From Microbotryum violaceum (lineage: Eukaryota), in NCBI GenBank assembly GCA_001244265.2, contig CDLV01000011.1, positions 620,001-684,000 of the forward strand: DNA of 64,000 nt. Reading direction: 5' to 3'. Numbering within the stretch: position 1 is the stretch's first letter; each line of letters begins with the position of its first letter. Below the pieces are notes generated by a model that did not search any database, had not been told where the DNA came from, and saw only the letters and a list, made by a program, of their open reading frames with translations. Shown here one piece after another: positions 1-38,680 of this stretch. Both the position numbers and the translations under genes were made by a program.

Positions 1-746
1 GCAGATCGCACCACCTCACCAAGTTCCTCCGCCTCTTGAGCCAATATCTAAGCATCCTCCAGCCCCGAATACTTGACATCTGTCGCCATTTGCTGAATAG
101 GAACCACATCGAACAGACACCAGCCCAACACGCACTGCTGGTCCCCGCCGGCGTCTTGGAGACTCTTGAGGCTGTGAAAGATGCTGTTCGCTTGGTGTAG
201 CCTGGCTTCCACGCGTTGAGTTGTCTTGTGCACGAGCTCGCCGTATTTTTTCTTTTGATCTTGTATGCGTTTCGCCGCTCGAGCACGGTGCGTCTCCTCT
301 AACCCTTGCGCGAGTCTAACCAAAAAGCGGGACTCGGTAAAGGCTTGGGTGGTATTCGAACTCGTCTTCGTGGGGCAACCAATTTCGAGCACGTGGAACG
401 TCATGACCGAGATCAAGTGGGCTGATTTAGACAAAGGGCCATACTCCGGTGAATCCCTGCCGGTAATCACCTCGGCAGATACAGGTTGTGGAGAAAAAAC
501 GTAGAGACTCATAAGCCAGACGAGGAAAAACGTCATCGCCTGAATCGGACGAAGGACGACCTTTCTTCGAAGCGAAGGAGATGGTGTGTACATCGATGAG
601 GAAGTATGGTCGTCCTGATGAACGTCCACGTGAGACTGAAAAGACCTAGCGGCCGTCGCTGTCCGCGTGCGAAGAGCGTCGGCTGACGCAGGCTGGGCTG
701 CGGTGTCCTTGCGCACGTCATCTTCGTTGTAGGTGTAGGAGACCAT
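1..746 (-). pseudogene. Paralogue of the 5152-6771 membrane/coiled-coil gene, with an in-frame premature TAG; continues off the window edge
   Basis: YGELVHKTTQRVEARLHQANSIFHSLKSLQD...MATDVKYSGLEDA*ILAQEAEELGEVVRS aligns to YQKLVTQTTRTTAVKVEQAKDIFGSLLNLGD...LATAVKYSGLAEREFLGAQLNDLGNDVRS; homology continues past the stop at 48-50. Confidence 0.7.
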
Positions 747-2462
747 AGCCTCTTGAGGAGAGCTCAATGGGATCACTATGAATACTGGAGAACGAAACAA
801 GCTGTCGCAGTAGACTGACCTGTTTCTACTCCCCTACATTGCTCTTCCCACCTCGTCAAACTGCCGGTTCCAAAAGGAGCCCCCGACTCTTTGCCACTGC
901 AGCCGGTTACCCCCCATATGACCTGTAGGCTGCGCAGGGCTGCGCAAAGTGTGGTGTCAGTGACCGGTCAGAAGAAAAAGGCGGAATATGAGGGTTCAAG
1001 AACTTCGAGATCCACGAAGCGTCCAGCCTAGGTCAATTACACACGCCCACTGCATTGAGTAGTCTACTTATTAAAAATCTATACTGTGTCTTTTGAACCC
1101 TTGGGTTCCCTTCTAAGTTCTCCCCGAGTACGGCTCACGACGCAAAGCACTGAAATAGATATTTTCCTTTTCGTACATTGACAGGTCACAAATTTGAACA
1201 ACAATACCTTCGAGCTACGATGCACCGCATCCTTCAGTCCACCGCCTTCAAGGAACTAGCGCGTAGACTTGCAACAAGCCTCTGTACGTCCCTAGCACCT
1301 TCATCCGATTGTAAGCACGTTGAACGAGCGATACGGTCTCTAAGATATGCCTCCGTCAGCGTGCTTCGCTCCGCAGCGAGCTTGTTGTGGAAATTTGGTC
1401 TGGTATGGGCTCGATGGGACCAACTATTTCAAGCTCTTGTGGCTACGACGGTGCCTCGGCTTCCACAGCTAGTACAGCGCCGATCGTGACACGCTGCTCC
1501 AGAGTATCGGATACATGGGCAGGTTGATTTGCTCCAGAAGTCCGAGGCGTCGCTAGTAGACCTTTTGCTGGAGACGTCGAGATCACGGTGATTTTGTAGA
1601 CCTCGAAGACGGATTCGATTTCATGGTCAGGGTCAGGATCGGGGTCGTAAGGGGCCAGGCACTCTTCCACGTCGAGACTGGGTCTCAAGACAACATCGCA
1701 GCTCAGTATCGCCATGGTTCTTGCCATGTTTCCAGAATCCCACTACGTTTTCCTGGAATTGCGTTCCTTAGCATGGTGTGAAATGATAGTCAGGCGGCGC
1801 CCAATGGGAATGCTATTGACTGCGCTCAATCTTTCTATTGGTTAGCATTGCTTTCTAACGTTTCTTGGTGGCGGGTATCAGCGAGCCTGATCTAGGTGAG
1901 GTGGATAAATGCGATCTGCTTGCGGGCAGCGGAGCCCTGGCCGGCTTGACGGGGCAAACCCGCCGAGGCATGCAGGCCCCCCGAAAAATCCTCCCCCGCT
2001 CTCCCCTGCCTCAAGCCGCAGTGGGAGCAGCTGCTCACTTACGCTCCGCCCGCTTTCTCCCTCTGGCACACCGTCCGATGACACACCCAATCCATGGCAC
2101 TTCCAGCCGCAAATCTGACGACAACTGAAGACTTGAGCAAGAAGACGAGCCCTAGTATCCGAGTCTTCAAGCGCAATCATGATGGTGAGTCCGGTCATCA
2201 TCTCCGAGTCCACCCTGGAGCCGTCGCCTACCGAGGTTAGTACTGCTCTAGGCTGCTGACGTCTGGGCTGGACCAAGGCGGTGTCCGAAAGGATCATTTC
2301 GCACTGTGAGCTGTGACCTTGGGGGCTCTTATACGTGATCCTCTACGCTACGATACATACTGACCGTCGCGCGCTGGGTCACGCCGCGACTGCTTACGCG
2401 TCCCTATGCGGCAGCGTGCCGGTCGGCAGCGGCCAGGCTTGTCAGCGCGTGCCACGCCGCGC

Positions 2463-2961
2463 CGACGACGAACCGGGCCCAGCCGTGTTTTCAGAGACGA
2501 AGTGAGTGTGTCCCTATCCTCAGTTGTAAGTCATACAGACCAAGGACTGAAGAGATACTTCGTTCGTGCCTCAGTTGGATGCTCTTCGCCGCCTTCCCCG
2601 CGGTCTGTTTAGCAACGGTGTTGTGCAGCGTTCAGGAGTATAGGTGTGGGCTACCTGGGTCGCGCCGGCCGACCCCACCCTCGGACCTCTCAGTCGCCTC
2701 CGATGCGGTGATCGACTACCCAGCAGGAGTCTCCTCTCGGGGACTGAGAGGTCCGAGGGTGGGGTCGGCCGGCGCCGCCCAGGTGGCCCACAGCCACACT
2801 CCCGCGCTACACAACACCGTTGGCAGACAGACCGCGGGGAAGGCGGCAAAGAGCATCCGACTGAGGTACGCACAAAGTTGCTGTTCAGTTCTTGGTTTTT
2901 ATAATACCTGAGGCTGGGGACACCCTCACTTCTTCTTTGAAGACAAGACTGGGCGTCGTCG
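2463..2961. repeat. Long imperfect inverted repeat (hairpin 1); arms about 2463-2695 and 2742-2961, 46-nt loop
   Basis: The innermost 34 bp (2662-2695 vs 2742-2775) are perfectly complementary; pairing continues outward with increasing mismatches, e.g. cccagccgtgttttcagagacgaagtgagtgtgtccc vs reverse complement cccagtcttgtcttcaaagaagaagtgagggtgtccc. Confidence 0.95.
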
Positions 2962-2981
2962 TTGATGTTCTCGGTTTGTGG

Positions 2982-3404
2982 ACATTCTCGCGAACCGCAG
3001 CTGAACCGACAGCCCGCCGCCGCTGCTTCGACTTCGGAGACTGTAACCGAGGACCCGGTACAGCTCCACCCGATCCAATCGGCTGAGCATCTACTACATG
3101 CATGTGTGCGGTACGCTCTACAGCACCTCGTCGTCGACACCCTATCTGTTCCGATCGCCCCTTTCGCCTTAAACGACTGGGCTCGGAAAGTCGAAACTCG
3201 GAAACTCGTGGTTAGAGGCGAAAACGGCGATCGGAACAGATAGGGTGTCGACGACGAGGTGCTGTAAAGCGTACCGCACACATGCATGTAGTAGATGCTC
3301 AGCCGATTGGATCGGGTGGAGCTGTACCGGGTCCTCGGGTTACAGTCTCCGAAGTCGAAGCAGCGGCGGCGGGCTGTCGGTTCAGTTGCGGTCCGCGAGA
3401 ATGT
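2982..3404. repeat. Near-perfect inverted repeat (hairpin 2); arms 2982-3159 and 3226-3404
   Basis: Arms of about 178 nt differ by only 3 substitutions and one 1-nt indel; weaker pairing extends inward (tttcgcct/aggcgaaa) and outward to about 2960/3420. Confidence 0.97.
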
Positions 3405-3930
3405 TCGCAAGAACATTGACAAGCCGACGGCAGTGACTAGAGTCTCAGTCAAAACGAGTAGCGCGTATCGTGATCTGCCCATAAACTCGTGACGTCTTGT
3501 TCTCGAAAGATGCGCGCGCCCGGCGTGGGCTTCGAAGGTGCCGCCCAGGTTCAAAGGCGAGCCTAAGTTACTAGGATATCGCATCGGGCGGTGGAGAGGG
3601 CGTGTGCTGTGTTACACCTACCACCTGACTTGATTTCATATTTTTTGTCTCCTAAATCTTTAATAATTACTAAGATACTGATCGGGGTTCAAGTCGTCAG
3701 GACGACTCTGCACACATGTGACGGCGCACTGCCTGCCACTGCATGCATTGGGCGAGTACTTTAGAAACGCTGAACACTGAGGATCGTCCAGCGACCTTTG
3801 TGTCGCCCTTAATGAGCAATGAGCACACATTAAAAAGCGACGAAGCCCGTCAAGAGCTCCGCGGGAGCCGAATACATTAGTGGAAGCCTAGTCAGCCGGA
3901 GACGGCTAGCCCAAGCAAGAGTCGGGACTT

Positions 3931-4770
3931 CCATCTCAAGCAGAGGGCTAGCGGTGAAATGTCGGAACCCGGACACGAACCGAGGGTTATAAAGATACAT
4001 CGATCCTCATGTCACTGCAAATCTCCTGCGACCCATGCGAGCCGCTATCTGTCTCTTGCGACTCTCTTTCGGGGCCAATAGGAAGGAAGCCGGGATCCCC
4101 GGGATTTCGTCGTCCTTCGGCCAAAAAATTAACCTCGCGTCAACGACCGGACATAGCACCCAGTATGCACGATGATGACTTCCAACCGTCAGCTTGATGC
4201 GCTGTAGCTGGCAGAACAGACCAACCCGTCACAAATCACTGGCGAGCTGATTATAATGCATAGCAAAGAGAGGCCGGGACTTTTGGGAATTGGGCGCCGA
4301 ATCGCCGATCCACCCTCGTTGAAAGCGTCGAAGCGAGTCAATCAAAACCCTCGGAATAGCGACGCTCGTAGTTCTGTTCGTGGCTCCCTTGTTCTGCGCG
4401 ATGGGCTGTGTTAATATACGGATTTGAGATGTTCGAAGTGACGACTGACCGAAGTAAGCAATTGGATGGTCAAGTAGCTGAGCTCGATGACGTACCTCCT
4501 GAGGATTTGCAATTAACTGTATGCAGAAACAACCCGAAACTCTCGGTTCTATGACATCGCTCAGTAATTCCACTTGTTGATAAGAAAAGTGTGACAATCC
4601 AGCCAGCGAGCGCGAGCACGAGTTGAAAGTTACAGAGCGTCATTGTATAGAGACACGAAGGGTTAGTTCAGTTCGGGGATCGTTCAGTGGCGAGAGATTC
4701 CGACTTGGAGGCCAAAGGGGGAAAGCGGGAACATATCGACTGGGAAGAGGGTAGTCTGTTCGGTTAAATA
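3931..4770 (-). pseudogene. Decayed copy of the 37641-38680 gene family
   Basis: Colinear nucleotide similarity of 3931-4150 to 38465-38676 and of 4721-4765 to 37699-37740, in inverted orientation; no intact ORF. Confidence 0.7.
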
Positions 4771-5151
4771 CAGAAAGACGAGTGCAACAATACTGGTGCT
4801 TGATCTCCCTCTGATGTCAATCTGCGCTTAAAGCCCCCGTCGAATTGCTCGTCGTTAACATAGGGGGTGAAGCTTGATCGTTCCCACGCCGGCGACCTTT
4901 CGAAACGCTTCTAGTCACGTGACCTAAGTTGATGGAACCAGCGAAAATCACTTTTTGTATACCAGGTGAAAACGATTCCTGTCGACCCAGCAGTCCTGTT
5001 CATGTATATAGGCCTGTCAAACGTGTACGAAAAATCAGCTCAAAGCCGCCGCACCTCGCGTCACGACTGCCTAGTGCTCACGTTCATATATCCCACCAAG
5101 CCCAAGCTTGATCCCCGATGGTACTCTACATAAATTTCACCTTCCCTTACC

Positions 5152-6771
5152 TTACATCGGTAGTGTTTTGGCTCCACTGCCTCCAGTTTTGCCCCTATTC
5201 TTTACCTCCTGCAGCGTTCTCTTGAAATCATCCATGACCTTCCCTAAATGCTCGACCTCCTCGTCGACGTCCAACCCCGTCCCACCCAACTGATAGCCAA
5301 TCACACTCGCCTTATAACTCCCAACCCCATGCTTGTACTCCAACAAGGACGTCCTCGTCTCTTCCAAGCCACGATGAAGGACCGAGACGCTGCTCGCCGA
5401 CACCCGCGTGAGGTCATAGTCCTTTTTCAGTTGTCGTGCCTTGAAATTGCTCTTCGTTCCTACGACCAATGCGCCTGATTCGGAGATGAAGCGCATCAAG
5501 GGACTGGATTCTTGGCGCATCTCGTCGATCCTTCGATCCTCGCGACTAAGTTCATCGAACAACTGTCGTGCTCGATCCGACGTGCGCGTCGAAAGCGGTA
5601 TCGTCGTTTCGAGCTTGTCGAGAATCGCTTCGAGGTGGAAGTTGATTTGTTCGTAAACCTCGTTGATGGATGCGGAAAGTCGGTCGTTCTCCACCGTCGA
5701 ACGTCGGCGCCGGTTTTGCTTGTTCGATTCCTTTTCGGCGTGAGCTTTATTGATGATGATTTGGAGGCGGTCAAAATGATGAATGACCCAGGTGAGCGAA
5801 TTTATCCCCAATGAGTTGACCTCGATGAGGTTGTCTTTGAGAGATCGAACGTCATTGCCTGTGGTGAGCACGGCAGAAACTCTTCAAATTTAGCCTGGGC
5901 TTCCCGGGTGGAATTCTTGAATCTCCGCGAGCTCACCTAGGTCATTCAGCTGCGCGCCCAAGAATTCCCTCTCCGCCAACCCCGAGTACTTGACCGCCGT
6001 GGCCAGCTCCCACATCTCCACGGGGTGCAGAGCGCCGGCACTTCCGGCCGACCCATCGCCGAGGTTCAACAAGCTCCCGAAAATGTCTTTCGCCTGCTCG
6101 ACTTTAACGGCGGTAGTTCTGGTCGTTTGGGTGACGAGTTTCTGATAATCAATTTCGGCTTGAGTCGGTGATGAGCGATTGCAGCCTAATCGGATCGTCG
6201 AGCAGTAGAGGGTCGTGAGGGGTGTGAAAGATGGGGCCGAGGGTAATAGGAGTAGTAACGATTTGCCGAACGACCGAACGGAAGAGAGGCAGTAACATGC
6301 CAAACCGATGGCGCAGATGAGGGGGAGAAGATACATGAAACATGACCACACCATGGATATCCCAAAGGTACCGACTCGAGCACTCGGTCTGAGCAAAAGC
6401 AAGAGCAGTGAGCGTAATCGTCGACCCAGACCGGCAGTTGCTGATTTCTTGCTGGTGGTGGGGGCAGGTCGAGCTCTTTTGGTGGGGGTTGGTGGGGGTG
6501 CGAAAGCGAGAATTTGGTCTTGTTCCTTTCGAGATTTCTTGGAATCTTCGTGATCCTCCCAATCATCACTGTCTTCATCGCCCTCCCACGAGTCTGTCCC
6601 CTGATGCGCCCGTCGTGACTTGGTAGTGGCGCCCACAGGTGAGCCAGGACCAGCAGCTCCACCACCGCGACTGCTGCCGCTGCTGTTCCCGGGCCGAGAC
6701 GGGGATGCTCGACTAAGGCTCGACTTGGACTGACGAGCCCTGAGAACGTTCTTGGTGGGGCTCGAGGTCAT
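5152..6771 (-). CDS. Hypothetical membrane-anchored helical/coiled-coil protein (2 exons; intron 5859-5936)
   Basis: ORFs 5890-6771 and 5152-5871 are joined in frame by a GTGAGC...CACAG intron (QLNDLG|NDVRSLKDNL); disordered N-terminus, hydrophobic segment, helical C-terminus. Confidence 0.8.
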
Positions 6772-37361: not shown

Positions 37362-37640
37362 AGCCTCTGTTCTTATATGTAGGTCATATGAGGTGCATAT
37401 GCATGGTGTTGGGTCATGCGGGGCTTGTGGTAGCCGGAGCAAGAGGGCGCTCATCTTGGCTCGGCAGGTGTGCCCGGGTGTGCCGGCCCTTGCGCTCCGT
37501 CGCCGCGGTCTCGCGCAGTCTCGCCGCCAACAGAACTCGCCGCTACCCGGCCGCCCGTTTGCTCAATTAGGCCCGTCCCTCTGGTTTTTGACCTCACAAC
37601 GTTACTTCGGCCGGGCAACCACCGTCCCCACAGCGTTACC

Positions 37641-38680
37641 ATGTCCGAAACGGAATCTCCACCCCCGTTACAGAGAATCCCACTGCGAGTACTGATCGAC
37701 CGAAGAGAGTACCTCCTTCCCGAGATGATGTTTCGCTTCTTCGAGGTGGCTATCCGCCGGCCGGAAGCCCGCTTTTACATGGAAGCTGAGGTTATTTGGC
37801 AGGCCGTCTCCGAAAAGACGTGACGAGAGCTCAAGGCCTACGGCGAGGCACTCAGACTCTACTGCGTGCAGATTGCGACCCGCCTTGAGCAACGGTCAGG
37901 CTTGAACCTCTTCTCTCGAGAGGTATGGGCGGCCTGGATAGAATCGCATAAGTTCTATCACGGGGATCGTGGCTTCTGCAACGATTACTGGAGGGTCATC
38001 ATGTACTCTGGTTACCGTAGGTACTTCTATGTGTCCCCGCGACCTCCACAGCTGCAATCCGCTCGGACGCGGCGGACTTACACCCTTTCACTTGCGATCG
38101 CACAAGTCATCAACACCCTACGCGACAGATTCATTGCCGAATATAACGCGAAGCACCCCAAGTTCGACCCTCCTCTTCAACGATCCGACAATCTCATCCA
38201 CCGTCTCGGAGCTCCCGTCGTTTCGAAGGGATCGTGTGGTCTACTTCGAAGGCTTTGAACCAACGCCTGGTCCTGGACCCTCTGCATTCCTCGACGGCGA
38301 GCTGGACCATCTCAAGAGTAGGTCTCTGGATGCTTACCCGTGGGCCGTCACCCATGGCGAAATATCAGACTAAACCCGCTGTACGTCCTCGGCGCTAACG
38401 TGTACCTAAACAGGACGCGGTGGCATTCGCTTCGACGGTAAAGGCGTTCCCACCGACTTTGCCGTCGTAGTTGATGCGAAGTCAGATCTTTGGCCAAAGG
38501 ACGACGAAATCCTGGGGTCTGCGACTCTCCTCCCTCCTGGTACCGCGAGCGAGTCGCAAGAGACGGATAGCGGCACGCAAGGTGCTTGCACTGACTAGAT
38601 GATCGATGTACCGTTCAAGAACCTCGGGTCGTGTCACGGCTGCGATGTTTCAACCTGAGCCCTCTGCTGGACATGGGTGC
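37641..38680 (+). pseudogene. Disabled gene of an unknown family (paralogue at 3931-4770)
   Basis: ATG at 37641; in-frame TGA at 37821-37823 with the same frame open to 38258; further stops and frameshifts downstream. Confidence 0.6.

Follow-up and report, generated by a model that had tools for sequence, protein, structure and literature searches.

Introduction

Endogenous genes whose long hairpin transcripts give rise to small interfering RNAs (siRNAs) have been documented in flies and in budding yeast (PMC10317233; bioRxiv 10.1101/2019.12.12.873604). In wild-type Naumovozyma castellii, of the siRNA reads that map to siRNA loci, 74.1% are reported to come from palindromic loci (bioRxiv 10.1101/2019.12.12.873604), and for the hairpin RNAs (hpRNAs) of Drosophila a loss of RNA-seq signal inside the stems has been described (PMC10317233). 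The smut fungus Microbotryum lychnidis-dioicae is reported to possess one Dicer, two Argonautes, and one RdRP, all of which are expressed (PMC4469406). A literature search that covered few subscription papers returned no description of a long-hairpin siRNA gene for Microbotryum or for basidiomycetes.

This article examines a palindromic locus within a 64-kb stretch of Microbotryum DNA (the window, which denotes the whole stretch that was analysed). The locus is spliced, apparently single-copy, autosomal by the naming used in M. saponariae, and traceable over three species, and for these reasons it provides a clean test of whether fungal palindromes persist by selection on RNA or by mutation alone. 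If no small RNAs arise from it, it would be a decayed gene of an ordinary kind that carries a nested insertion. We hold it to be likely that the locus has a two-part architecture, consisting of an old hairpin and a younger insertion.

Locus Layout, Samples, and Copy Number

The hairpin unit sits between two genes, on the strand opposite to both.

48-763, minus strand: gene A, distantly paralogous to gene B.
5152-6771, minus strand: gene B, which encodes a 513-aa protein, is convergent with the hairpin transcript, and serves as the synteny anchor.

The two genes form a tandem pair of paralogues that share 36% identity over 64 aa, and gene B has no Pfam family above the cut-off. Its product differs from BQ5605_C012g06907 of Microbotryum silenes-dioicae at 7 of 513 residues, and further orthologues are found in M. 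intermedium and M. saponariae (g08746). The DNA is accordingly that of a close relative of M. silenes-dioicae. The two long abutting hairpins described in an earlier note on this DNA are both present and lie far beyond chance, although they differ in kind, the first being an old duplication and the second a probable insertion. When all 64 kb were scanned in 600-nt segments, those over the hairpins scored 618, 480, and 292, against 56 for the next best and a median of 24, and the folding of both strands that the note had proposed as a check gave z-scores of -20 to -53 relative to 20 shuffles each. The hairpins show no relation to each other, nor to genes A or B.

The stretch from 1000 to 5200 is present in 20 of 24 listed public runs (7 studies), and four of the 24 were examined for contigs over the locus. 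X17 is taken as an RNA run on the strength of five splice joints, and run X20, which yields unspliced contigs at a depth of ~3, was used for single-nucleotide polymorphisms (SNPs) only. The strain in DNA run X14 shows 17 differences over 1000-3023; one X14 contig extends from 1000 through hairpin 1 and into hairpin 2, a second covers the hairpin 2 loop, and a third runs from 3363 outward. Since these contigs run through hairpin 1 and over the hairpin 2 loop, an assembly fold-back artefact, which the earlier note had listed as a refuting outcome, is unlikely, albeit none of them spans the whole stretch.

At 85% likeness, X14 depth over the arms of both hairpins is at or below the single-copy level, and no loose contig ends occur at the arms except for one short match near 2471. 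The repeat at 4165-4228, by comparison, exceeds a depth of 1300. Hairpin 2 is therefore no young multi-copy MITE, there being no raised arm depth in X14 at 85% likeness of the kind that many dispersed copies would give, and the MITE alternative is left without support in its high-copy form. It remains the case that hairpin 2 has transposon-like ends, and two abutting hairpins would have the look of a linearised rod-shaped circle; but against a multi-copy fold-back or MITE family, an assembly artefact, or a DNA copy of a rod-shaped viroid-like RNA stand the arm depth, the 20 of 24 runs that carry the stretch, the spliceosomal intron and its inverted copy in hairpin 1, and the Rfam results, and we judge this whole group of explanations very improbable. 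Rfam 15 gave no match in the window at gathering score and seven at E up to 10, with no ribozyme among them; the sub-threshold matches to miRNA precursors reflect generic hairpin shape. A viroid- or obelisk-like origin was set aside on account of the spliceosomal intron, the synteny, and the lack of a ribozyme.

No second copy of the hairpin arms occurs within the 64-kb window, and at 85% likeness the contigs of DNA runs X12 and X14 yielded no paralogue or target, while protein searches returned syntenic orthologues only; these target searches covered DNA of at least 85% likeness and proteins outside the range of 196-333 aa. Metagenome scans gave no matches and a viral scan 0 loci, an Atlas search of the locus produced leads only, all at or below 0.90, and Pfam searches over frames on and around the hairpins gave no family above cut-off.

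Structure of Hairpin 1

Hairpin 1 has the extent of about 500 nt that was first ascribed to it and is made up of the following parts.

2465-2698, plus strand: hairpin 1 left arm, with a perfect core at 2662-2695.
2699-2738, plus strand: hairpin 1 loop, 40 nt.
2739-2962, plus strand: hairpin 1 right arm, as aligned to the left arm.

Of the 234 columns in the alignment of the arms, 192 match, 32 mismatch, and 10 hold gaps. Hairpin 1 had been characterised as a perfect core decaying outward, of which the core, 34 bp in length (2662-2695 / 2742-2775), is real and the decay pattern is weak, a run of 34 or more being borderline against chance (P = 0.056). Only ~30 of its 21-mers have a perfect complement. 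An inverted, decayed copy of the gene’s third intron remains in the right arm, and the duplication that made hairpin 1 thus took place in DNA. Within the right arm, 2894-2905 is AT-rich relative to both the left arm and the M. saponariae right arm, and on the minus strand it resembles a TATA box.

Transcription and Splicing

All of the splicing evidence comes from one run (X17) of one study, from which the transcribed features are as follows.

1995-2184, plus strand: exon 1, from an X17 contig (which starts at 1995) and a splice joint; it contains the ATG at 2094 and corresponds to residues 1-28 in the M. saponariae model.
2185-2277, plus strand: intron 1, GT..AG, joint in X17.
2278-2305, plus strand: exon 2, from an X17 contig.
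2306-2414, plus strand: intron 2, GT..AG, joint in X17.
2415-2501, plus strand: exon 3, the 3' part of which begins the hairpin 1 left arm; 2416-2444 pairs with the remnant at 3416-3433.
2502-2574, plus strand: intron 3, GT..AG, joint in X17, entirely within the hairpin 1 left arm.
2094-2911, plus strand: spliced open reading frame (ORF) of 180 codons through both arms, from the ATG at 2094 to the stop at 2911, with all three splices in frame.
3356-5151, minus strand by its introns in 4406-5151 and putatively so in the intron-free part 3356-4405: RNA contig continuous with gene B (X17, 3453 nt), ending inside the hairpin 2 right arm.

In X17 the plus-strand contig ends at 2695 and the gene B contig at 3356, and among the contigs listed none covers 2696-3355, a gap that taken alone proves nothing. 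Both ends coincide with the edges of 31-mer stretches common to the arms, which hints that both hairpin arms are present in the RNA pool.

The gene B contig contains two minus-strand introns, 4406-4495 and 5014-5081 (X17 joints, GT..AG). The region 3356-5151 is a candidate long 3' UTR of gene B, and the convergent transcript appears to reach into hairpin 2, with the proviso that a contig may cover two units and is no proof of a single transcript. Both introns lie downstream of the gene B stop codon, the nearest at 70 nt from it, and gene B RNA with introns in this position might be a substrate for decay. The AT-rich stretch 3630-3680 could hold a 3'-end signal on either strand, and the X17 contig runs across it. 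The repeat at 4165-4228, which lies within the candidate 3' UTR, is a degenerate piece of a highly repeated sequence (contig depth 1318 vs 25 in X14), the family of which extends past 4228 with a tRNA T-loop-like stretch that is absent from the window. Another dispersed repeat is represented by two inverted copies, at 3931-4147 and 38467-38676, that are 73% identical; the latter comes after a broken-looking reading frame at ~37640-38300, and a further copy, located elsewhere, matches 4046-4087.

Orthologues, Age, and Decay of Hairpin 1

The 180-codon ORF has an annotated orthologue in M. silenes-dioicae, BQ5605_C012g06908, which adjoins g06907, the orthologue of gene B, and differs from the ORF at 6 of 180 residues and by an alternative acceptor. 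A longer-protein search gave one match among 284 candidates, M. saponariae Chr6-3g08747, which likewise adjoins the gene B orthologue (g08746). The breaks in Chr6-3g08747 fall on or close to the three intron positions, but beyond exon 2 it continues in another frame. Both syntenic gene models contain both arms of hairpin 1.

It might be supposed that the unit is a protein-coding orphan gene of 180-190 aa that happens to hold an inverted repeat, given that the reading frame runs unbroken through all three splices between ATG 2094 and stop 2911 and that this frame is open and annotated in M. silenes-dioicae. The frame is lost in M. saponariae, however, the proportion of changed residues does not differ significantly from that of gene B (6/180 vs 7/513, Fisher p = 0.11), and the ORF product has an Atlas model with a pTM of 0.19 and no Pfam family. 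We regard a coding orphan as a far-fetched reading; the ORF probably makes no functional protein, and BQ5605_C012g06908 and Chr6-3g08747 are probably mis-annotated hairpin transcripts that take different frames through both arms.

The M. saponariae evidence is read from a predicted protein in back-translation rather than from DNA. The order found in it is the left arm, the reverse complement of the window’s loop with ~75 nt more, a spacer, the mirror parts, and finally the right arm. The model is self-complementary, with a score of 127 where none of 30 shuffles exceeded 71, and the self-complementarity of the inner extension was equalled by 0 of 2000 shuffles; the informative columns are compatible with pairing in 41 of 42 cases over core and loop and in 41 of 52 in the extension. 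As judged from this gene model, in which both arms occur, hairpin 1 is older than the split from the M. saponariae lineage, and its 40-nt loop, which has counterparts on both arms there, is probably the remnant of a longer stem. We infer that hairpin 1 is at least as old as the divergence of the sister species M. saponariae and M. lagerheimii, a divergence that has been put at 3.0-4.4 My with a calibration that its authors call not robust (PMC6581054). The right arm of Chr6-3g08747 is split at window position 2814 by ~165 codons of unrelated sequence.

Within the core, two residues separate the window from M. saponariae, a Pro to Leu change in the left arm and a Val to Glu change in the right, at paired positions next to each other; one complementary 2-nt change would explain both, which is no more than suggestive, as the partner bases are wobble positions. 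In the window lineage, two changes would restore pairs, that at 2771 being well polarised and that at 2806 ambiguous (a CpG site); under an assumed chance of 7% each, this is weak evidence (P ~0.25 for one, 0.03 for two). The M. saponariae right arm resembles the window’s left arm (4/79 vs 7/70 incompatible columns), which raised the idea that the entire hairpin is inverted in one species relative to the other; this was set aside, protein data being unable to separate it from faster decay of the right arm.

Much about the arms is in keeping with a neutral relic, that is, a dying lineage-specific gene whose DNA palindromes are made and repaired by template switching, with low transcription and no meaningful siRNA. 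Mutation alone has been described as able both to create and to repair stems by template switching (PMC8794818). Wobble pairs show no strand bias (10 G-U vs 9 A-C), and X14 SNPs are as dense in the hairpin 1 arms (4/458 nt) as in the flank (13/1566 nt; Fisher p = 1.0), all four arm SNPs turning a Watson-Crick pair into a mismatch or wobble. The arms differ from each other by ~14% substitutions, which resembles the divergence of 10-14% to M. saponariae in the arm regions and, on these sequence comparisons, roughly equals the expectation for neutral decay since the species diverged; an excess of divergence in the intron over exon 4 was not significant (p = 0.20). In each of the two lineages, moreover, the right arm seems to have received an insertion. 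Set against this, the three introns are still spliced, and the gene models of two other species place introns at the same sites or close by, the core is paired in both lineages, and a transcribed long stem would likely be cut by Dicer, useful or not. We consider the neutral relic possible, if less probable than a hairpin-RNA locus.

Hairpin 2 as a Probable Insertion

The features of the second hairpin and its borders, none of which is assigned to a strand, are as follows.

2966-3415: hairpin 2, a 450-bp fold-back with TGT...ACA ends, arms of ~210 nt, and a loop at 3178-3207.
2962-2965: left TTGA, a 4-bp direct repeat and candidate target-site duplication (TSD).
3416-3419: right TTGA, the second copy of the 4-bp direct repeat.
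3416-3433: displaced outer remnant of the hairpin 1 right arm, from the empty-site alignment; it holds the 9-bp closing pair.

The arms of hairpin 2 (2966-3177 / 3208-3415) are long and near-identical, as had been noticed from the sequence, although the identity is unevenly spread. The outer 35 nt carry 4 substitutions and a 5-nt gap, the inner 18 nt by the loop carry 5 substitutions, and the 159 nt of the near-perfect middle (3001-3159) carry 1 substitution and a 1-nt gap (outer vs middle, Fisher p = 0.003). Imperfect ends around a near-perfect middle fit a template switch that overwrote the hairpin 2 interior. As many as 200 of its 21-mers have a perfect complement. The termini at 3402-3415 and 2966-2984 can each form a small stem-loop with a 5-bp stem, the right one being perfect.

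The earlier note saw no obvious target-site duplication and read the two hairpins as successive inverted duplications. The first statement has to be revised, as TTGA occurs at 2962-2965 and 3416-3419 beside the TGT...ACA ends, and the second is probably wrong for hairpin 2, which bears the marks of an integrase-type insertion within a hairpin 1 arm. TTGA is the sole direct repeat of at least 4 letters among 156 boundary pairs scanned; by simple arithmetic, such a repeat would be expected by chance in ~5% of cases for any of ~12 symmetric registers and in ~0.3% if TG...CA ends are also required. When the element and one TTGA are deleted in silico, the right arm of hairpin 1 continues and pairs with 2416-2444, with two deletions. 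The empty site thereby accounts for the 9-bp closing pair (2436-2444 / 3417-3425), which had been proposed to close a T-shaped fold. The pair is present and forms in the plus-strand minimum free energy (MFE) structure, but its like was equalled by 248 of 20000 random window pairs, and on this reading the T-shaped closure is the leftover of an interrupted arm and no designed fold.

On this layout of repeats and arms, hairpin 2 is probably an insertion into the outer right arm of hairpin 1. The alternative, that it was generated in situ by a second inverted duplication of the gene’s downstream sequence, with TTGA as switch-point microhomology or chance, can point to the lack of a second hairpin 2 arm copy among X12 and X14 contigs (85% likeness), to a 100-codon stop-free plus-strand frame that the left arm continues, to a fifth terminal base that misfits the Ginger consensus TGTNR, and to the fact that the direct repeat straddles the deletion junction of the arm. 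It has to contend with a 4-bp repeat exactly at TG...CA ends in symmetric register (a rough chance of 0.3-5%, depending on boundary freedom), with a hairpin 1 arm that resumes beyond the element, and with the want of any credible homologue of the hairpin 2 frame, and we think it improbable. The frame 2941-3240 was compared with 1.84 billion proteins and gave two matches, neither of which was counted as a homologue: one is a retrotransposon-type polyprotein, matched over part of its integrase region (30% identity, E 5.7e-08) and at most a doubtful homologue, and the other is repetitive sequence.

TGT ends with 4-bp duplications mark Ginger transposons as well as the ends of Gypsy LTRs (PMC2836005). 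Hairpin 2 is not filed as a Ginger because it fails on termini, which are not TGTNR, on target, which is not of a Ginger-preferred kind, and on integrase, of which none was found.

A Proposed Hairpin-RNA Model

The locus is a candidate palindromic hpRNA locus and behaves like one as far as it has been tested. In the model considered here, exon 3, intron 3, and exon 4 of a spliced plus-strand gene would have been copied in reverse just downstream, before the M. saponariae split. Transcription of the unit persists, as observed in one run, with three introns spliced out as far as the left arm, and the transcript would cross the 40-nt loop into the right arm; the mature RNA would then fold into a stem of ~124 bp with the 34-bp perfect core, from which the inverted intron copy would bulge out. 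Template switching or gene conversion between the arms may keep the core paired. The 450-bp TGT...ACA element, to go by its ends and flanks, would have entered the outer right arm later, duplicating TTGA, and a template switch between the 18-nt inner and 35-nt outer imperfect repeats probably created its near-perfect interior or restored it. Dicer would cut the stems into putative siRNAs, and hairpin 2 would give a near-perfect stem of ~200 bp to any transcript crossing it. As no second copy was seen, these siRNAs would be expected to have as their main targets the hairpin transcript that gives rise to them and the long convergent RNA of gene B.

The proposal that this is an endogenous hairpin-RNA locus finds real support for hairpin 1, in the spliced transcript, the presence of both arms in the M. 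saponariae gene model, the unconserved frame, and the RNAi genes of M. lychnidis-dioicae (PMC4469406). The expression of those genes, together with the palindromic loci of N. castellii, leads us to expect siRNAs, the production of which from this locus we rate as slightly more probable than its opposite. Of the readings considered for the locus as a whole, the likeliest, at even odds, is a palindromic hairpin-RNA locus whose transcript supplies Dicer and whose effects fall mainly on the locus itself. A selected function seems doubtful; the lack of a G-U bias, the equality of arm and flank SNP densities, and the fact that no second copy or target was seen all speak against it. A more ambitious and quite unlikely proposal is that anther smuts have Drosophila-type hpRNA genes that derive from lineage-specific spliced genes and have been kept for millions of years, that the right arm collects different mobile-element insertions in two lineages and turns them into siRNAs, and that the convergent neighbour is tuned via the hairpin in its long spliced 3' UTR.

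Comparison With Known Systems

With respect to the way in which its stems may have formed, the locus resembles the template-switch stems described in PMC8794818 in having perfect stretches bounded by imperfect repeats and matched changes in both arms; those described there lie in structured RNA genes, and the tract here would be ~160 nt long. Hairpin 2 shares its TGT...ACA ends and 4-bp TSD with Ginger1, Ginger2/Tdd, and Gypsy LTR ends, and its inverted arms fall within the 40-270 bp range given for Ginger1 (PMC2836005). It departs from Ginger, as characterised in that source, in that both of its ends read TGTTC, where TGT fits TGTNR and the fifth base fails; in that the empty site is GTTGAC, TTGA being neither the CCGG/CCGT of Ginger1 nor the RTATAY of Ginger2; and in that no integrase was found (Pfam, frames scanned), no further copies were seen, and the element is almost all palindrome.

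Among siRNA-producing loci, the palindromic loci of N. castellii are likewise fungal inverted repeats with hairpin transcripts in a host with Dicer and Argonaute (bioRxiv 10.1101/2019.12.12.873604), the machinery here being that reported for M. lychnidis-dioicae (PMC4469406). The present locus differs from those loci, as they are described, in its basidiomycete host and in a spliced precursor with an intron in one arm. The hpRNA genes of Drosophila (Nmy, hp-ODox1/2) differ, by the account of PMC10317233, in having homologous target genes and arms derived from elsewhere, whereas no homologous target gene was found here among the sequences searched and the arms come from the host gene itself. 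In other respects the locus resembles these genes. Hairpin 1 is a long inverted repeat able to form a stem; its transcript is spliced and mRNA-like, with three GT..AG joints (X17, one run); and it encodes no conserved protein, the frame being different after exon 2 in M. saponariae and open in M. silenes-dioicae. As in the Drosophila genes, a spliced primary transcript carries a long inverted repeat made from a piece of a gene, transposon-type sequence is present in the locus, and the stems stand without RNA-seq cover (PMC10317233).
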